A stretch of 64,000 nucleotides of DNA, taken from positions 620,001 through 684,000 of the forward strand of contig NEEC01000010.1 of NCBI GenBank assembly GCA_002189035.1. Reading direction: 5' to 3'. The first letter of the stretch is position 1, and every line of letters starts with the position of its first letter. The notes below the pieces were generated by a model. The model had not been told where the DNA came from and did not search any database. It worked only from the letters and a program-made list of their open reading frames with translations. The stretch comes from Utricularia gibba. Its lineage: Eukaryota > Plantae > Magnoliophyta. The translations under genes and the position numbers were made by a program. Shown here in pieces: positions 5,400 through 54,744 of the stretch.

Positions 5400-5904
5400 T
5401 AAGATTTAGTGATAATCAAGAACACATTGGCAAGAATGATATTATGTAAAAATAAAATAACCCTACACTACATCGCAAGATGTTCCATTAAACACAGCTC
5501 TATCCAACTCAACAAAACATACTTCTCTTGGTTATTCAAGGCCTTTAGGATCAAATCTCTACCATTTCTAACAAACTTGACTCTACCCTCTCCATCGCCT
5601 CACATTCTGACCCATTCCATGACGTAAGTATCCTCTACTACACTTGAAGATGAGGACATCTCCAAAGTTAAGTATGGGTGATGAGTTTATACATTTATGC
5701 TCTTTTTAGTAATACTTTTTATTTTATTATGGTCATGCATTAGGACTTTTGTAGTAATTTTTGTCTATTTGCTTTTTTTATATTTCATTTGTAAAACCAT
5801 CCCCATTATATTTAACATGAGGCAAAGAGAGGCAAAAATAATAATGAGAATAGAGGTAAGGAAAGCCAAAGAAGAATATACACACCTTGCAATAGGTATT
5901 AAAA
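5400..5904 (+). mobile_element. Older Athila-like 3' end (gtaagt...gaggac...ttaagtatggg, then TGATGAG LTR start at 5679), interrupted by the younger element
   Basis: Motif order resembles 13175-13230 and 14420-14450 of the main element. Possible remainder at 14989-15121 ending TTTTATCA. Confidence 0.4.
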
Positions 5905-7035
5905 AGATAAGTGATTTTCTGTCACTTATATTTGTGCTTTTTAGGATTTACTTAAATGGGTTTTGCATTCTTTTTATCCCACTTTCCTTATATTTTTAGA
6001 CGAATTTTATATCTTTCATACCACTAGGATTTTCGAGCTACTTTGATGGAGGAAAAGATTCAGTCTATCTGGATGAAGACTCGGTCAAAGATTCTCGGAT
6101 AAGATAAGATTCGCATCTTATCTTAGAAAATTTGGATCTTATCCTAGAAGATTTGTATCAAATCTTCGAAGATCCAGATAGAAGATTTTATGTGAGCCCG
6201 TCAAGAAAGCCCGACAAGTCCCCACCATTATATACAGATCCAAACTCAAAGATCACAAGATGAGTCAAGGGGTGGACGACCAAAGAGTCAATTTAGGGTT
6301 TAGAGTTGAGTTTAGCATGTTTTTGATGTCTTCCCTTTCGTTTTTCATCAACTTTTGTTGTTTAGAGTCAAGCATGCACGTGTGAGCGCTTGCGGCTGAG
6401 GATCTGCTGTGAAGCCCTGCTTGCGCAAGTCCTGCGCGCGCGACTGTCTTACTATGTTTTTAAGCATTTAATTTGAGGTCTGATTCTGTTTTTCGCAACA
6501 TTTTCTTTACCAACGTGATCTTTAGTACCATATAGCCCTAAGAAAGTGTGGAAGAATCAAAGGTTGGCCTCAAGCACCTAAGGAGAAGGGCTCAATCGGA
6601 CATTGTTGGTAAGGCACATTCTGTCTAATCTGTCTGCGAGGTGTGAGGTGTAGGGGTTAGATTTGGGTTTGGGGAAAAATGGGTTATCTCAAGAGATGAA
6701 ATGGCTCTGGTGGCTTGGTTGATTTTATAATCCCACGAAACAAGGGACGGTGCTATAATGGTCACCGAGTAGCACTATTTTAGCATAACACCCCCAAAGC
6801 TTCCACAAACAGGTCAATTCTCAAGGTTTGCACACATGCAAGGGCGAGTTTCAAGTAAGGTGGATCTTAGATCCAAGGCCACTTTTCTTATTGTTTTTAA
6901 AAACCAAATCTTTCTTTTGTTTTCAATCTTCTTAAAGTCTTTGTTTTGAAGAGAAAATTCTAATAACAATTCCCTGTAGATACGATCTTATTTTATTACT
7001 TTGATGGTTTCTGTACACTTGCAAAATTACCATCA
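5905..7035 (+). repeat. 5' LTR of the Athila element
   Basis: Begins aGATAAGTGA (3' LTR: TGATAACTGA), ends TACCATCA. Contains an 11-bp-stem hairpin TAAGATAAGAT-tcgc-ATCTTATCTTA at 6100-6125. Confidence 0.9.
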
Positions 7036-7041
7036 AGTTTT

Positions 7042-7059
7042 TGGCGCCGTTTTCGGGGA
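7042..7059 (+). other. Primer binding site (tRNA-Asp type)
   Basis: TGGCGCCGTTTTCGGGGA 6 nt after the LTR; two mismatches to the Athila-type consensus TGGCGCCGTTGCCGGGGA. Confidence 0.85.
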
Positions 7060-7179
7060 ATTGTATTCCTTTGGAATTTCTTTTCTGATTTTGTTTCTGA
7101 CTATTTCTTATTTTTCTGTTATTTTCGAGACATTCTATTTAGTGCACTTGCGCAAGCAATTGCTTTTAATTAGTGTTGC

Positions 7180-9916
7180 ATGTGCACGTACAGGGCTTCA
7201 ATCGAGCTGTACCCGCTGGACCTGGAAATTGACCAGACCTATCGGAGAATTAGGTCGGAAAATCGTCAAGCGCAAGCGCAACGCAGGGAAACCATGTCTA
7301 GAAGGTATTTTGGACATGAGGAGGACTATCTGGTGATGTCCGAACCAGATAGCGAACGAGCACGGACGCCAAGACACTAGCCAAACAGGGCAACTGGATC
7401 AGCCTTGCTGATAAATAAAAGAACAGGTATAGGCAGATCTGCTGCTGATCGTGCAGGGTCATATCGAAGGCATAGCGATGGATTTGATCAAGAGCTTGCA
7501 CAGGGACGCTTAGCAGCAAGATTGGGATCAAATCGAGGTGTGGAACCTCTCTGAGAAGGGCCCAAGGCACATTATCAGACCTAGGACGAACCAACAGGGC
7601 ACTGGAACGTGGTCTAGGAAGGCAAAGGCACGCAGGCGCAAATGAAAATTGTTTACAATCAACGTTTGCACAAGGATGGCAAGAAAACAGGGTTTTTGAA
7701 CCTCAACATCAGGACGAGCAGAACAGCAACCCACGAACTGCAAGGCGAGGAGTGAACTCTCCTCCAAGGTGGGAAGGAGAAGACCGTTGGGCTTACAATG
7801 GAGCAAACCAACGTGACAACCAAAGTCCTCATCACGAGCAAAGGTATGAATTTGTAGGAAATCCTGAAAGGGAAAATCATGGAAGACAAAGGCAGATGCT
7901 CAGGAGGAATGTGCGTGCTGAAGAAACATCTAGCGAAGAGGAAGGACCAGACCCAGCATGTAAGGAACCACCTGTGCAAGCGAGGAACCATCGCGCAGGA
8001 AGAGATAAGTATGTGCGCATGGAGCAGAATCCTAACAGATTTGTTGTTGATCCCTAGGATGAAATCCCTTTAGGTGATAACTTTCGACACACAAGGAAGC
8101 CTGGTCCCATTGTTGCACCAGCCATCAATGTGCGGAGATTCCAACTCCAACCCTCGCTGATCACCATGGTGCAACAAAGCCCATTTTGTGGAGAACCCGA
8201 TGAGGATCCCGAATAACACATTGCAATTTTTCTCAGGTATTGTGACATGGTGGCAGAGAGTCTCTGATGAAATCCCTTTAAACTCTCTGCCACCCAACCT
8301 TATTTACACTTGGAAAGAATAGGAGGATGCATTTTTGGACAAATATTTTGAACCCACGAAGTACTCTAACACCAGGTTTGAGATCATAAATTTTTCACAA
8401 GATGAAGGTCAAGGAATAGCAGCAGTTTGGGAGAAATTTAAGGAAATAACACGAGTCACGGATAAGCATGGACTCAGCCCCGCTGCTATGATCATGTGCT
8501 TTCATGATGGACTGACTGCGCAAGCAAAGGGACTGCTGAATGCAAGTGTTGGACCCCTGGACCAGGTAAGTCCTAGAAGGGCCTGGGAACTAATTGATGA
8601 GTTTGCAAAACGACAAGCACGATGGTCTCAACCAGCAAGGAATTCGAAAACTGGAGTTCGGGACAACCCATGTGACACTACCGTCTCAAAGATTTCTGAA
8701 ACATTGCAAAAATTAGACGATAAAATCAGCAAACTCCAGCCTGTCATTGCTCAAGTCCAAAAAGCCTCAGAGAAGACAGATAGTGAGGCAGAAGAAGAAG
8801 GTACGAATGTTAATTTTGGGAATTTTTAGGAAAAAACTTGCGCAAGGAGCTTCTATGCCTGCGCAAGGGAACATTTGGGGAAATCGGGGCAACACTTGGT
8901 AGAACTAGAATCAGAACCAACAGCAGCCTCAACGACCATTCTTGCGAGATACGCTCAATCAATTCATGGAGAAATAGGAAGGGCTGAACCAAGGAATGTT
9001 GGAGCAAATCAAACAAGTAAATGGACTGGTGGTTGAACAACTTAAGCAAATAAGAGGAGAAATTTTGGACCAAAAGACAAGGGTGAATGAGATGAATGAG
9101 TGTCTGGAGCAACTTGGGATAAGAACTCGCATCCTAGACAGTCGGATGAGTAATGTTGCTCAAACCCACAAGGCTTCGAGGCTCCCAAGTCAACCAGAGA
9201 AGAATCCTGCTGAATGTAAGGCTGTAGCAACGAGAAGTGGGATGCAGAGTGCAACAGCAGCAGCCCCTGCACAAGCAGACGAATTGCTGGATGTTCCAGT
9301 GTACGTGTCCCCACCTTCTTATAATCCTCCAATTCCTTATCCATAGAGACAGGCCAAATCATCAGTGGATCAACAATATTCCAAATTTCTGGAGATGTTG
9401 ATAACTCTTCATGTGAACATCTCATTCACTGATGTGATGTTGCAAATGTCCATTTATGCGAAATTCTTGAAGGATATTTTGGCCAATCAAAGGAAGATTG
9501 AGAATGATGGTGTTATTGAATTATCTAAGCAATGCAACAAGGTTCTTACATAGGGGCTGATTCAAAAGCATGCAGATCCTAGAATTTTTTCAGTCTCTTG
9601 TATCATTGGAAGAAGCAATTTTGAGAAGTGCTTATATGATCTTGGGTCAAGTATCAGCTTGATGCCTTATTCTTTATTCAAAGCACTGAATCTTGAGGAG
9701 CTAAGAACCAGGAAAATTCAGCTGGTATTTTCTGATAAATCCATGAAGAATCCTGAAGGAGTGGTAGAAAACGTGCCGGCAAAAATTGGAAAATATTTTG
9801 TTCCTTGTGATTTTGTTGTTTTGGATATGGCACTTGATGTGGAGGTGCCAATCATTTTCAAGAGACCCTTTATGGCAACCACAGGAACCTTAATTGATGT
9901 TAGAGCAAGGAATTGA
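7180..9916 (+). pseudogene. Athila gag and aspartic protease (disrupted)
   Basis: N-terminal LYPLDLEIDQTYRRIR; PAINVRRFQLQPSLITMVQ; Retrotrans_gag-like AVWEKFKE...FHDGLT; protease LYDLGSSISLMP and DFVVLDM. Several stops, frameshifts and small deletions. Confidence 0.85.
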
Positions 9917-12900
9917 CACTCAGATTTGGAGAAGAAGAACTGGAGTTCAATGTTGATCAGGCAATGAAGCGATTTGACTGCGACGAGCTTGCGCAAGGGG
10001 AAGCGGAAGATGCTGTTACGCAAGAACATGCACAAGCAGTTTTTCTGTGCGAAATTCAGGAAGTAAATCTTCTACAGGATGAAAAAGAAGACACTCCGGA
10101 TGACACACCAATGATGGCTCGGCTAACAAAGAAGGAACTTGATGCTGGAGAAAAAATTGAGTTGAAGAAGCTGCCACTATCAATGAGTTACGAATTTCTT
10201 GAGGATGATCACATTTACCCCGTGATTTTTAATGCAGAATTGAATGAATACCACACCCAAATGATGCTGGATGTCTTGCGCAAGCACAGACAAGCCATTG
10301 GGTACACCTTGGATGACTTGAAAGGGCTTGACCCTCAATTCTGCACCCATCGGATTTATTTGGAAGCTGAGGCAAGACCAATTGTGCAACCACAAAGGCG
10401 GGCGAATCCTATGCTAAAGGAGGTGATTAAAAACAAAATTTTGAAATTGTTAGATGCTGATATCAGCTACTCTATTTTAGACAGCCAATGGGTTAGCCCT
10501 ATGCATTGCGTACCAAAGAAAGGAGGCATGACAGTGATGCAAAACGAGAAGGGAGACCTCATTCCCTTGCGCAAGGTCACTAGCTGGAGGATGTGTAATG
10601 ATTTTCGAAAACTCAATGATGCCACCAGAAAGGATCATTATCCATTGCCATTTATTGATCAAATTTTGAAAAGGTTAAGTAACCAAGCTTTCTATTGTTA
10701 CCTGGTTGGTTATTTCGAATATTTTCATATTCCAATTCATCCGGAAGATCAACACAAGACCACATTTACTTGTCCTTTTGGCACCTTTGCATACAAGAGA
10801 ATGCCATTCGGTTTGTGCAATGCTCCTGGAATATTTCAGCGTTGCATGACAGCTATTTTTACAGAACACGTGGAGAAGATCATGGAGGTATTTATGGATG
10901 ATATATCTATTTATGTGACTGATTTCGATTCATGTTTGCAGAACTTAGGCATCATTTTGGAGAGGTGTATTGAGTGCAACCTGGTACTCAATTGGGAGAA
11001 GTGTCATTTTATGGTTGAAGAAGGCATTGTGCTTGGACATCACATTTCTTCCAAAGGCATTCAAGTGGATCCAGCAAAAATCGAGGTGTTTGAAAAATTA
11101 CCAGCACCAACTACGGTAAAAGGGATCAGAAGCTTCTGCAGGATTTTATAGGAGGTTTATTGCTAATTTTTCTCACATTTCTCGCCCACTAACAACGATG
11201 CTTGCGCAAGACGTGGATTTTTGTTTTGAACTGATGTAGAATGTGTGCACGCCTTCAACACGCTGAAGCAAGCTCTTATTACTGCACTCATTCTTCAACC
11301 ACCAGATTGGACCTTGCCATTTGAACTGATGTGTGATGCAAGTGATTGTGCTGTAGGAGCTGTTCTTGGACAGAAAAAAGACAAGGTAATTCATGTGATT
11401 TATTATGCCAGCAAAACTCTCAATGCAGCCCAAAGGAACTACACAACCATAGAAAAGGAGTTGCTGGCAATTGTTTTTGCCATTGAAAAATTCAGGTCCT
11501 ACTTGCTGGGTGCAAAGGTAATTGTTCATACGGATCACACTACCTTGAAATATCTTTTGAGCAAGCAGGAATCAAACCCCAGGTTGATAAGATGGATACT
11601 ACTTCTCCAAGAATTTGATCTGGAAATTCGTGACAAGAAGGGCAAGGAAAATGGAATAGCTGATCATTTGTCACGCTTACAGCTTGAAACAAGTGTGGGG
11701 GAGTTACCCATTGATGACTCTTTCCCCATAGAACGTATCCTTGCTGTTCAAGATGAAAATTTGCCATGGTATGCTGATTTTGTCAATTATCTTGTTGGAG
11801 GAGTCTTGCCCCAGAATCTAAACTACAACCAGCGGAAGCGCTTCCTTGCGCAAGCAAAGCATTATTTCTGGGAAGAACCTATGCTTTTCAAACGTTGTGC
11901 TGATGGAATTATCAGAAGATGCCTACCACCAGAGGAGGTAACAGACGTTATTTAGCACTATCATTCATCACCATATGGAGGGCATGCAGCAACATCAAAA
12001 ACACTCTTCAAAATTCTTCAATCTGGATTTTATTGGCCCACCATGAATCATGATATGAGGGCATTTGTTCAAGCATGCAAACCATGTCAGCATGCGGGTT
12101 CTATTTCCAGGAGAGATGAAAGACCCATGACATATATCCTGGAGGTAGAGATTTTCGATGTTTGGTGGCTGGATTTTATGGGACCCTTTCCATCTTCTTA
12201 TGGCAACACTCAAATTCTCGTGGCGGTGGATTATGTCTCAAAATAGGCAGAAGCTATTGCAGTTCCAGCAGCTGATGGAAGAGCCATAATTAAGCTCTTC
12301 AAACAGATCATTCTACCCCGGTTTGGAGCCCCAAGATACGTCATAAGTGATGGAGGAAAACAATTCATTGAAAGAGAATTCTGGAAGCTCTTGCGCAAGT
12401 ATGGAGTAGGACACAAGGTATCAACTCCATATCACCCACAAACCTGCAGACAAGTGAAGGTAACTAACAGGGAATTGAAGAGGATTCTGGAGCGTACGGT
12501 GGCCAAAACCCGCAAGGATTGGGCAACCGAATTGATAGATGCTCTATGGGCTTATCGCACAGCGTATAAGACTCCCTTAGGGACCTCCCCTTATCGTTTG
12601 GTGTATGGAAAAGCTTGTCACTTGCCTGTGGAATTAGAGCATTTGGATGCCAAAGCTGCTAGAGAGCAAATGATCTTGCAACTCCAAGAGCTGGATGAGC
12701 TAAGGAACAAACGAAGGCTTGACATGACAATTATTTGCGCAAGGACTTGGTAGAAAGTGACCCAATTTTGTTATTTAATTCTCGTTTTCGTTTATTTTTA
12801 GGAAAGCTTAAGTCTAGATGGCATGGACCATACACCATCAAGAAAATCTACCCCAGTGCAGTAGCTCTCATCACTCATACTGACCATGGAGAATTTACGG

Positions 12901-12930
12901 TAAATATTCAAAGATTGAAATAGTTTCATG
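9913..12930 (+). pseudogene. Athila pol: reverse transcriptase, RNase H, integrase (disrupted)
   Basis: WVSPMHCVPKKGG, FRKLNDATRKDHYPLPFIDQ, YKRMPFGLCNAP, FMDDISI (RT); [32 protein letters not shown] (RH); HSSPYGGH...[45 protein letters not shown] (INT). Confidence 0.95.
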
Positions 12931-14436
12931 AAGGGGTAAAATCTTCCATGGACACGTTTCATGTTCCAGTGGATCTCTCCAACCACCCCCCACCTTGATG
13001 AGAAAGCACCTGTGGTTTGCTTGTCGCCACACAAAAACAAGCGATTTCCCTTTTAGTTATTCTATTTTCGATTTTCTCTTGTATTGTTTTTCTTTTCTTC
13101 TTTCTCCTCAATAAGTGCAGGTGCAATGGATACTTTCGAGGAAAAATCCCACACTATTTGACACATGATGAAAGGTAAGTGTTTCTACCCATCTTGAGGA
13201 CAATATGTCATTTAAGTGTGGGGGGGGGGGATAGTTTACTTTTTAGATTGTTTTTTTTTTACCTTTAATAATTTTTTTCGAAATTTGACATATATTTCAT
13301 TGATGAACTCCTTGCATTTTATGTTTTGCTGGAACCTAGGCATCTGTTTTTGGTATTTTTTTTCGAGATAGTTGCTGTAAATTAGAATTTTGGTATGCCT
13401 GTTGTTATGTTGTTTCTTGGCATGCTGTTTAATTTCTGTCCCTTGCGCAAGCTACATAGCCCTAGTTTCTTGGTGAGGAGACCATTTCCTTTTCATTATG
13501 AGTGACTTGAATGCAGAATGATCATAGACTTGCTCTTGTGCATATTGCTGAGTTTTTTTTACAGGTCTTGTGCAAAAGGATTGAGGCACTAGGATTTGTC
13601 TTGTTTTATCCCAATATCCCACCTTGAATCCACTTAGTGAGCTCCACTTGGCCTGAAACCTTTTATTTGGGTCACCACATTAGAAGCCAAATACGTTTTG
13701 ACAATTATAGCCTACATCAATTTCTCTTGACCCAAGGAATGAGCATCTAGAAAATAGTTTTGTTCGTTTGCTTGCGCAAGTTGCTGAACCAAGAACTCTA
13801 TTACAAAGAAGAAAAGTTGAGAGCAATTTTCAATTCACTGATGAAGCTCTATCTCAACAATTTATGAAAAGATTTTCAATAACATCCTATCCAAGAGAGA
13901 GTTGATTCCCAAAAAAAGAAAGAGAAAAAAAAAGAAAAAGAGAAGAAGATGATGAGAAGAAGAGAGAAAAGAGGCTGAAAGGTTGGAACAAGCCACAAAA
14001 CTGAAAAAGGAGTTTCTTGGAGTACGAAAATCAAAGGACAAGCATGACATAACTGTTTGATGGATGCTCACTCCTTATTACCTATGAAATGGAGACTCCG
14101 GCCAAATTTCCCACCTATCCCAAGCTGCTGCCGCACTACAACCTGAGAAAAAGACCTCATGATTGCGCAAGCTTGCTGAAACCAGTGGATCACTTGCGCA
14201 AGTTTATTGACTCGCCTACATTTAGGTATTGAGTGAACCTTTTTATTTTACCCTCTTATGGATTTCTCTTCTTGAGCATATTGAGTGACACCTATGAGGA
14301 GAAGCCACATGCAAGGGGAGCTAGTGTATGGTATGCCATTGAGCAACTTATGCATATTGTTGCCTTAACTCTATTTGCAAGTTACTATTTTGAAGGAAAG
14401 TGCCTTGAACAATTGCTTGAGGACAAGCAAACATTT

Positions 14437-14450
14437 AAGTGTGGGGGAGT
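14437..14450 (+). other. Polypurine tract (a second PPT-like tract lies at 13214-13230)
   Basis: AAGTGTGGGGGAGT directly before TGATAAC; internal copy AAGTGTG followed by a G run. Confidence 0.8.
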
Positions 14451-14988
14451 TGATAACTGATTTTGTGTCGCTTATATTTGTGCTTTTTAGGACTCACTTA
14501 AATGGGTTTTTGCATTCTTTTTATCCCACTTCTTTATATTTTTAGGAGAATTTTATATCTTTCATACCACTTTGATCTTTTTGGAGGGAACGTGTGTTTT
14601 GTGATTTTTCAGGATAATTTTGGCATAATTTGGGGGATTTTCGAGCTACTTTGATGGAGTCAAAGATTCAGTCTATCTGGATGAACACTCGGTCAAAGAT
14701 TCTTGGATAAAATAAGATTCATATCTTATCTTAGAAAATTTGGATCTCATCGTAGAATATTTGTATCAAATCTTCAAAGATTCGGATAGAAGATTTTATG
14801 TGAGCCCATCAATAAAGCCTGACAAGTCCCCACCATTATATAAAAATCCAAACGCAAAGATCAAAAGGTGAGTCAAGGGGTGGACGACCAAAGAGTCAAT
14901 TTAGGGTTTAGATTTATATCAATTCCCTATGAATACGATCTTATTTTATTATTTCGATGGTTTCTGTACACTTCCAGAATTACCATCA
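14451..14988 (+). repeat. 3' LTR of the Athila element (internally deleted)
   Basis: TG...CA. Lacks ~660 bp equivalent to ~6305-6965 of the 5' LTR. Confidence 0.9.
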
Positions 14989-16429
14989 ATCCCCATTAGG
15001 ATCAGTTATTAAGTTTAAGTTTTATTTTCCATTTTAGTATCTTTAACACTCTTATAAACCCATAATAATTTATAATAGTTTTTGAAAAGTCACTTTTCAT
15101 ACAACTCAATTTCTTTTTATCAACATTTGTGCTGTCTTAATTGTATTTTACTTTTATAATTAAAATTTATTGACGAGAATTTTTAGGAGAGAAGATTCTC
15201 ATCTTTTGTTGGACATATTTAATTAGGTTAGATTATATCTTATATATATTATTTAAATCTTTTAAAATTATCTTTAAATAATTATTTAAGTCTCAAAATC
15301 ATGTATCAAATCTTCATTCTTGGAGTTCCCATTCACTGAATTTTGTGCAATTTTAAACTCACAAATTGTTAGATTTTTATTTCTTTTCAAATTGATTGGT
15401 AAATGTTGTAAAAATCTATAAAATATATTTTCTCATAAAAAAGTAAATAAATATAAAATATATAAATTCAAGTGAAGTTCAAGATAAAATGAATAATAAA
15501 GTAGGTAAAAAAATTTTAATGATATAAAAACATGTTTTGTAATGATCTAAAATTAGTTATCACTTTGCATGACAAAAAACTATAGCTATGGAAGATTTCC
15601 ATATTATATTTGAATCATTTTTCTATTATTTCAATGTTTCAAAAAATACAAGTATAAAAATGAGCCGAATTGGTGAGAATAATGAAGTTGAATAAAAGTA
15701 AAATCAGAAAAAAAATATATTAAAGTAATCATATAAAATTGATGAAGATAAAGTAATATTACTTGTTAATTATGCATTCTTTTTGTTATATTATGTTTTA
15801 TGTGGACTTAAAACTTCATTTCTATAAATTGTTTTATTTTTAATTCATCATTGATAAATGATTTTTTGTTATTCTAAAACATGTTTTTACATCAATGTTT
15901 TGAATTATTTTTACCTAATTTGTATGCTATTTTCTCAAAAAAAAATTATTGATTTAACATATTTTGTATTAATTTGATATTTTACAAAGTAAATTGTATT
16001 TTTTTATTTTTAATACATTTTTTTAGATAAGTTAAGAAAAAAATCAAAACCCAACAATTTATAGTTTTGAGATTGCATGAATTTGAGTCCGAGGAGGTCC
16101 ATAAATGAATATTTGATGCAAAATTTGAAGATTGAATAAGGATTTAATAATAATCTTACAAAATTTAAATAGAAAATAAATTGAAGATATGATACAAGCA
16201 AATCATGCAAATCTAACAAAATATTCATATTTTATTTCTGATAAATATTCCATTCCCTTAATCATTAGATATGTATTTTGATTATTTTTTTCATATATAT
16301 TTTTCATGTTAAGATTTAAATATATACATGTATGCACCTACTGTTAAGGAAAGTTTTGCTTGCTTACATTTCTATTTGTGTGATTATTCTACGTTCTCCA
16401 AAGTTTGATTTCATTTTTTGCAATATTTG

Positions 16430-52669: not shown

Positions 52670-54744
52670 AGTCCCTTCTCGCCTGCAGCAAACGCTTTCA
52701 GACCTCAACCTCACTCACGGCAACGGCACACGAGACACTGACCGCAACTCCTGGAAGTTGAATGCATTCAACGGGGTTTTATTTCGCGGTGGGATGTCAC
52801 GGGGAACCCTCGGGATAGAGAGAGGAAGACAGCAGTAGCGGTGGCAATATACCTTTGGTTCTCCCAGTTCTGTTTTTCTTTTCTTTTTTCTTTTTATTTC
52901 ATAATCTGACAAATTTACCCAATAAAGCACTATGCTCGCAGTTCAATGATTTGGACGGCTATCATTGGTTAATTTCTGAAAAAAAAATATTTTTTTAGTT
53001 AGTTGAAAAAAAAAATATATAAAAAGGTACGGTAAAATCCAATTCCACTTTATATCCACAACGTTCACCCTCAAATCTTATTTCGGGAATCCAAAGAAAA
53101 ATAAAATACTTTCATTCTATAAAAAAAAAATTAAAAAGAACAACGTGGGCATGCGAATGCATTTAAATACTATTTCATATTCCAATAAATTCATTTTCAA
53201 ATACATTTTACAAAAATACCCTTAAAAATCATCTATTTTTTTCCAAAAAGATGAATATTCCCAAAATCCAATTTAGCAATCTAACATGGCTTTGGAATAC
53301 TTACCATTGGCAAGTTGAGATTTCATTGATAATCTCTTTTTTATTTTGATAAATTTTTCCATATAATTTTCTTGATTTCTCCCTTATCCGGGAAACTTTG
53401 CGAAGATCTATCAGTCGCACTTCTCATTCAATGCCACATATTTTTATATGATATGGGTCAATTATCAGATGATTAAATATTTTGTTTTTGCAGGTTTGAA
53501 ATGCTACCAATTTGAATTACTTTCAATTTAATTTTTATTTCTTATGAATTTACTAATTTGAATGAACATGTGGAGTTGAAGGTTAAATACTTTTATGTTG
53601 ATAAATTTTGTTTGATCCTAATAAGTTATTTTGTATAGTTTCAAAATACGTTTTTATCCACTCTTTAGAATTTTTTTATTTTATTCTCTATGTTTTCATT
53701 AAATTTTATTGATTTTATATCTTTCATACTAATTTAATTTTTTGGAAAACAAATTGTATTTTTTAGATTACTATTATATTTTTGGATTAATTTTGGAAGA
53801 AATTATAAATAAAAAATTTAAAATTTAAATAATGAATGTTCAAAAAGATGTTCATGAATGAAATGATCCGAAATTTAAAATTTAAATAAAAATTTGAAGA
53901 TAATCTTGAAAGATTTAAATAAAAAATAAATAGAGAATTTTATTCCAATACATCAAACAAGCTCAATAGAAAATTCGATCTTATCTTCTATGAATACTAT
54001 CATAAAATTCTTTTGATCATTTTTCTTTTTTATTTTTCAGATTTTTATATTTGTTTTCATGTTAGAGACAAACATGTATATATAAATATTTTTTGCTAAG
54101 AATATATAGTAAAATCTTACTTATGTAAATACTTGTATGTGTGATTATTTTACTATATTTTTTTATATTTAATTTGAATTTTGATTTAATTTTCTCATTG
54201 TTTTTTTGTCAACATGCTATTGATCAATGCAAAACCCAAAGAGAATGTGAGAAAATTCAAATTGGTCTCAAACACCTAAATAAAGTGGTTCAATCAAACA
54301 TAGTTATCAAAGCACATTTGATGTATCTATCTACAAGGGTATGAACTATAAGGGCTAGGATTAAATTTGGGGTAAACATTGATTATCATATGAGGTAAAA
54401 TGATTCTAAGGACATAGTTAATTTTATAATCTTACAAAATGAGAGACGGTATTATAACAATTATTGAGTAGTATTAATACTCAAAATTTATATAAACAAG
54501 TTATTTCCTGATGTTTAAACACATACAAAGAATCAAGTGGAGATTAACCTAATGTAGATACATAATGATAAATTTGTTAGCATCATTTATATAGACTTGG
54601 ATTTTGACTATTAAATGAAAAATATCATCCCCTACTTGTATATGAGACTGTGTCCAATGATTTTTATTGTTCAAGAAAACTAATTTTCAAACTCCATGTA
54701 TATGCGTTATGTAGGATATTTTCTACCACAAAGAATTTGAGTAT

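Follow-up and report, generated by a model that had tools for sequence, protein, structure and literature searches.

Why should one short CG palindrome recur through the coding sequence of a plant retrotransposon? The question is raised by a locus of Utricularia gibba contained in a window of 64 kb, by which we mean the whole stretch of DNA that was analysed. The octamer TTGCGCAA occurs there 14 times within a single decayed Ty3/gypsy LTR retrotransposon of Athila type (approximately positions 5904-14989), 12 of these copies being the full 10-mer CTTGCGCAAG, and not once in the remaining 55 kb. Host genes for a PPR-DYW protein, an NCS1 permease and WDR3/Utp12 identify the window as plant DNA. 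The element is composed of the following parts.

5904-7036, plus strand: 5' LTR, approximate, from the direct repeats D2, D7 and D10 and the LTR alignment; one motif copy, at 6420
7041-7058, plus strand: primer-binding site, from the sequence, following the LTR terminus (CATCA) and a short spacer rich in T
7190-8900, plus strand: gag region, decayed, with a long N-terminal extension (PF03732 at 8323-8829; translation)
9390-12998, plus strand: pol, decayed, with protease, RT, RNase H and integrase (PF00078, PF17917/PF17919, PF00665; translation)
12999-14449, plus strand: 3' noncoding region; boxes resembling a polypurine tract at 13196 and 14419
14450-14989, plus strand: 3' LTR, shorter than the 5' LTR (LTR alignment)

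The assignment to the Athila lineage is based on several features. LTRs flank gag and pol, and the pol domains follow the order protease, RT, RNase H, integrase, the protease having been recognised by tblastn to control loci. Athila elements are described as having a pentamer at the end of the 5' LTR, then a short AT-rich spacer and the primer-binding site (10.64898/2026.03.20.713144); here CATCA, a T-rich spacer and TGGCGCC were found, the commonest Brassicaceae form being TATCA-ATT. Among 80 metagenome loci the best RT match was L001 (66%), which carries PF03078 (ATHILA ORF). In the RT tree, which held no Tat/Ogre rows, the element grouped, without strong support, with the ATHILA-ORF loci at 94/94, below the starred level, and on a long branch. 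Its RT is divergent throughout, with an end branch of 0.48 against a median of 0.13.

The element is decayed. Its pol reading frame is interrupted by stops and frameshifts, and alignment of the two LTRs over 477 bases shows 41 differences (8.6% divergence). A part of the 5' LTR of about 650 bp (6308-6962), which contains a GCGCGCGCG run and one motif copy, is missing from the 3' LTR, and no target-site duplication was seen around the element; it may therefore be a recombinant. An old LTR-like remnant at 54150-54457 shares 68% identity with the 5' LTR over 313 bp and lacks an intact word. In the gag N-terminus, an insertion of about 250 low-complexity residues (7300-8060) had no Pfam match, and several look-alikes of the word with two mismatches lie in or near it (7267, 7495, 7665 and 7971). 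No accessory ORF was detected in 12999-14449, where the first polypurine-tract-like box lies only some 200 bp beyond the pol stop. A pyrimidine tract with CAG, about 55 bases and then GGTAAG at 13090-13180 look like a small spliced exon; this stretch directly precedes the first of these boxes, in the place that the accessory ORF takes in other Athila elements.

The copies of the word are spread over the whole element, with 7 in pol, 1 in gag, 1 in the 5' LTR, 1 in the leader and 4 in the 3' noncoding region. They are listed here without strand.

6420, 7147 and 8837: upstream copies in the LTR, the leader and the gag end (L-A-Q); a copy matching 9 of 10 positions follows at 8858
9988-9997: CTTGCGCAAG, L-A-Q in the variable linker between protease and RT; L-A-Q in 0/33 proteins and 0/29 loci, in a poorly alignable column
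10275-10284: CTTGCGCAAG, L-R-K ahead of the RT core; this tripeptide is present in 15/116 proteins and in 9/86 loci, with motif codons in 0/9 of these loci
10566-10575: CTTGCGCAAG, L-R-K in RT, where relatives have T-R-T or T-R-L
11201-11210: CTTGCGCAAG, L-A-Q at the RT end, with Q in place of the K found in 95% of control loci
11845-11854: CTTGCGCAAG, L-A-Q in the interval from RNase H to the zinc finger of integrase; L-A-Q in 0/54 loci
12390-12399: CTTGCGCAAG, L-R-K in the integrase core; L-R-K in 0/41 loci, L-x-K being common there
12734-12743: TTGCGCAAG (9 of 10), L-R-K in the C-terminal part of integrase; L-R-K in 3/25 loci, with motif codons in none
13442-14202: 3' noncoding copies at 13442, 13771, 14162 (9 of 10) and 14193

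The seven pol copies had already been placed correctly by the initial annotation; in the pol frame they read L-A-Q at 9988, 11201 and 11845 and L-R-K at 10276, 10567, 12391 and 12735. At the last of these sites the end of one X2 contig has the full 10-mer. The number of copies is far above that in Markov shuffles of the element, although the motif was left in for training: shuffles of order 2 gave a mean of 0.42 copies and a maximum of 3 in 200, and those of order 3 a mean of 1.46 and a maximum of 6 in 200. A check of synonymous codon choice, proposed with the initial annotation, came out in favour of a constraint on the DNA. Five pieces of pol were examined, and in these the motif codons encode all 7 in-frame L-R-K and L-A-Q tripeptides, which has a probability of about 2e-12 under the codon use of pol itself. 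The eight coding copies use two reading frames, the third being used by none. Other 8-bp palindromes in the element number 34, as expected, and indicate no general excess of palindromes. Tests for regular spacing or periodicity of the copies were not significant (P 0.14, 0.45 and 0.10). Exact extension of sequence sharing into the flanks averaged 0.75 against 0.70 for random sites, with a maximum of 4, and no conversion tracts were found; the conversion-like spread that had been offered as one origin of the copies thus finds no support, since the flanks share nothing beyond chance. Because the codon choice is complete, the flanks are unrelated and the palindrome count is ordinary, what has been kept is a specific DNA word and neither a palindrome tendency nor a peptide. 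Our data show that this word is kept at the DNA level, in two reading frames as well as in noncoding parts. The DNA-level constraint on pol codons, as first suggested, is borne out by these observations and by the presence of both tested sites throughout the family (see below).

DNA uptake sequences, which occur genome-wide in prokaryotes, are likewise under DNA-level selection within reading frames. The initial annotation had compared the pol copies to these and to HIP1 of cyanobacteria, a CG palindrome that is kept in reading frames by selection on the DNA (PMC5861425). The likeness holds for a CG palindrome maintained in codons. It is only partial, because in the window the word is confined to one element and not spread over host DNA, whereas the prokaryotic words are genome-wide; furthermore, no periodicity was found here.

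It had also been proposed that the word overrides conserved residues of pol, with IPTRTVTGWR given as the usual RT segment. The comparison with relatives supports this pattern. TRT or TRL dominates the column in relatives, and L-R-K at 10567 was present in 0/119 homologous proteins, in 0/96 loci and, for the best 150 hits from 1.84 billion representatives, in 0 of the 130 that could be read (the other 20 were unreadable). The substitutions are T to L at 10567 and T to K at 10573, T being found in 79% and 65% of control loci, respectively. K is replaced by Q at 11207 (K in 95% of control loci) and D by Q at 11851 (D in 60%). At 10276 and 12735, by contrast, L-R-K is ordinary, occurring in 9/86 and 3/25 loci, none of which uses the motif codons; here an override does not hold and the tripeptide is not specific to the family, while at the RT site the tripeptide is absent from the relatives compared. 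The RT motif site presumably lies in the extended fingers loop and not at a catalytic residue. Rare residues were found at 4/18 motif codons against 79/842 elsewhere; this enrichment is not significant (p=0.087) because the RT is divergent and decayed throughout. In these alignments a conserved residue is displaced at some sites only, codon choice being what the word draws on at the rest.

Other copies of the family could be inspected in the WGS run X5 from the same organism, the contigs of which cover 10258-10612 with a complete difference table of 24 rows at a level of at least 17%. No such difference falls inside either of the two motifs of the RT region (10275 and 10566), where the summed depth is about 600-1450; the base three positions before the RT motif differs in 98%. 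Thus, two of two sites tested are common to most copies of the family. At base 10582, 94% of the X5 depth differs, so that the S of VTSWR, which had been counted as part of the altered RT pattern, is private to the window copy. In a separate contig comparison, none of the 40 differences listed out of 589 was at a motif. A search pattern built on the motif-bearing RT site had 0 matches in metagenome contigs, and the viral collection yielded no relatives of the same family.

The CG core of the word has to be seen against the loss of CpG in the element, with a CpG O/E of 0.49 and 11 of 15 LTR CpGs differing between the LTRs. Sequence from the run X6 has the look of bisulfite conversion. In three of its contigs the terminal 15 letters correspond to window positions 10557-10571, except that each C outside CpG has become T, whereas the C of the motif CpG is retained. 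Since this C stays C in all three, the motif CpG at 10570 appears to be methylated in the sampled tissue. At most 2 plausible decayed look-alikes of the word were found (7666 and 13568), and only 1 of the 6 other CpGs in 10258-10612 varies at a level of at least 17%. On these counts no special protection of the motif CpG from decay was evident. Among the variable C/G positions of the family in this interval, those in CHG contexts are no rarer than those in CpG contexts.

A control set of 100 loci (605 kb) contained TTGCGCAA in 7 scattered copies with at most 2 per locus. Words of their own are found in many of these loci. Among 65 Athila loci of at least 3 kb, a set that leaves out the distant L095, 21 had an over-represented 8-mer, its excess being more extreme than the smallest p given by 65 Markov nulls; not all of the loci are independent, and some include flanking DNA. 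CG is contained in 16 of the 21 words, several are palindromic or pseudo-palindromic, and sister loci on the tree have related words. Examples are as follows.

ACTCGACC: L001 and L076
CGCCCAGCG: L016
GCTAAGCG: L052 and L079
CGTGACAC: L022 and L080
ACGGGCCGT-like: L083 and L087
ATCGACAC: L051

From the 21 of 65 loci it follows that family words are common in Athila elements. What sets the family of the window apart is that its word is written into enzyme domains. In 8 of the 11 loci mapped, 0/89 word copies were located in the span from RT to integrase. In the remaining 3, this span held 8/17 copies, all of them within low-complexity insertions between RNase H and integrase. For cores of at least 2 kb, the best 8-mer excess among 44 control loci had a p of 8e-6, compared to 8e-10 in the window.

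In several control loci, CG words that are often pseudo-palindromic are clustered after pol and in or near the LTRs (L001:4603-5308, L016:5931-6641, L052:4045-5117, L079:2592-3080, L022:8955-10228 and L080). The clusters of L001 and L016 are located just before the accessory ORF, which begins at 5400 and 6917, respectively. In other places the words read as low-complexity peptide repeats in variable polyprotein linkers (L083:2674-2695, L087:3586-3607, L051:1580-1680 and L001:211-260). The loci L081-L100 come from twenty bacterial genome records with a retrotransposon RT, which in 19 of the records is 52-72% identical to the RT of the window; these RT sequences most likely represent contaminating plant DNA.

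The question is then what might read such words. Of the nine post-pol ORFs tested in control loci, 7 were PF20167 or PF03078, the Athila accessory ORF that is absent from the window copy. The PF20167 domain of L016 (L016:7067-7876), folded with a 36-row alignment, gave a model with pLDDT 83.6 and pTM 0.79. Among 48,161 solved chains its best match was the VANC21-DNA complex with Z 8.0, the next reaching Z 3.5. The alignment extends over model residues 1-224 with 205 aligned, rmsd 4.2 and 11% identity, and gave Z 8.1 on re-alignment. According to the tool's note, the top hit of a search often reaches a Z of 7 to 8, but this match lies far above the rest and covers the domain. Foldseek likewise ranked VANC21 first, though not significantly (E 0.92, TM 0.39). 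The PF03078 model of L001 had a pLDDT of 44.6, was unusable and found no match. At the sequence level no link of the accessory proteins to VANC or PMD was detected by PDB sequence, Pfam and atlas searches, and profile comparison of the two accessory alignments added nothing. A VANC-like fold of the Athila accessory protein is thus a prediction from one model of another family's protein. Independently of the window, the match of a PF20167 model to VANC21 is a lead in itself.

The motif bound by VANC21 is family-specific and nine bases long, and the protein removes methylation from its own transposon family (Hosaka 2017, PMC5735166). VANC resembles the host PMD fold, and pentamers have been predicted for both VANC and the Athila domain (PMC13547354; 10.1101/2024.09.27.615353). 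For the Athila accessory ORF a nuclear localisation signal has been reported (PMC11728184, PMC13547354), its function being left open in the sections available of PMC11728184 and PMC12844716; the portions at hand of PMC11728184 and PMC13547354 state neither a VANC-like fold nor a cognate motif for it.

With a probability of roughly 0.45, we regard the copies of the word as candidate binding sites for a VANC-like accessory factor that were selected among copies of the element. A VANC-like accessory protein would recognise the word and protect the element against silencing. The more sites a copy had, the more often it would have been de-silenced and transposed, and sites would have been fixed wherever pol tolerated them, mostly through codon choice and at a few places through a change of residue. 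As the window copy is without an accessory ORF, the binder would have been supplied in trans by relatives. The reading is weakened by the lack of the ORF in this copy, by the unusable PF03078 model and by the methylation seen at one motif CpG. A wider proposal is put forward more tentatively: Athila 'env-like' proteins might be VANC-fold anti-silencing factors, each paired with a CG word of its own family, and in the family of the window the word might have left the noncoding clusters and entered RT and integrase, altering conserved residues, to form a self-recognition code.

The likeness to the VANC system of VANDAL elements is considerable. In these Mutator-like DNA transposons (PMC5735166; PDB 9lnj/9lnk), too, a short motif is enriched in one family and rare elsewhere, and different families have different motifs (PMC5735166); here, 14 copies in 9 kb stand against 0 in 55 kb of the window and 7 in 605 kb of 100 other loci. 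By analogy, the word may work like a VANC-type address label. The differences are equally clear. VANC motifs have accumulated as tandem repeats of the same orientation in noncoding DNA (PMC5735166), whereas the present copies are single and dispersed with unrelated flanks, 8/14 lying in coding frames. The element is an LTR retrotransposon, its word is a perfect CG palindrome with half of the copies in pol codons, no binder is encoded in the window copy, and the binding is a prediction. Because noncoding tandem arrays and an encoded binder are both lacking, we do not file the element as a member of the VANC system. Family-specific CG palindromic boxes are also found in Sireviruses, which are plant LTR retrotransposons (Bousios 2010, PMC2829016). 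As in the control Athila loci, these boxes are located before an env-like ORF (PMC2829016). Sireviruses differ in belonging to Ty1/copia, in the CGG-CCG core and in clusters in the LTR and pre-ENV regions instead of copies dispersed in RT and integrase (PMC2829016); the element of the window has the gypsy domain order, a different core and one LTR copy only.

Alternatively, the word could be the site of a host DNA-binding protein, either a transcription factor or a PMD-type protein, recruited along the element for its expression or chromatin state. A perfect palindrome suits a dimeric factor, TTGCGCAA is the animal C/EBP core, and the window copy encodes no accessory protein. Among host PMD proteins, MAIL1/MAIN and MAIL2 with the motifs M1M and M2M have a VANC-related fold; the palindromic M2M counters silencing, and MAIL2, for which conservation in eudicots is reported, binds a motif that is palindromic (10.1101/2024.09.27.615353). 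These proteins differ in that they act at host gene promoters, and the M1M-type site is not the word: the printed MAIL1 'DOWN' site is CATGCAGTTT (PMC9899485), the comparison being with this MAIL1-type site only. We consider a host factor unlikely, given that the 55 kb with several host genes are free of the word and that the many different words across Athila families would suit co-evolving element-encoded binders better.

The word might instead act on RNA, its self-complementary 10-mers pairing within a genomic RNA or from one to another and so providing scattered signals for dimerisation or packaging. Retroviral RNA dimers are initiated by GC-rich palindromes, the self-duplex of the 10-mer has -15.3 kcal/mol, and the copies are spread along the whole transcript. 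The 10-mer by itself forms no hairpin, however, and several other Athila words are not self-complementary (ACTCGACC). A CpG core would moreover be paid for by methylation decay and would bring no special gain for RNA pairing, and we judge such a role to be quite improbable.

A neutral drive, in which template switching or conversion copied the word without any function into places that nearly matched it, would account for sites that are many substitutions away from the codons of relatives. It would also fit the 3' copies at 13771 and 14162, which have common downstream letters as after a duplication. Against it stand flanks that share no more than random ones, the ordinary number of other palindromes, the third frame left unused by the coding copies, and the retention of a CpG word in an element that loses CpG; this origin is very unlikely. 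Chance, or selection that acted on L-R-K and L-A-Q as peptides, in favour of which the frequency of L-R-K at two columns could be cited, is excluded by the Markov shuffles, by control cores that come nowhere near the window and by the uniform codon choice, and would have to produce one DNA word in two different peptides and in six noncoding copies.

No report of this word, of a motif-constrained Athila pol or of a link between PF20167 and the VANC fold was found in the literature searched, the coverage of VANC being incomplete, which may affect how new these points are. What the Athila 'env-like' ORF does is a long-standing question. In the cited papers, sequence-specific anti-silencing is established for VANDAL DNA transposons and not for LTR retrotransposons. 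Our results provide a direct test, with named proteins, named candidate words and a structural reason to expect binding. The element of the window is an extreme case, its word constraining catalytic domains as in none of the 44 control cores. Should the proposed pairing of accessory proteins and words hold, it would account for the way in which a lineage that is among the most abundant of plant retrotransposons escapes silencing family by family.
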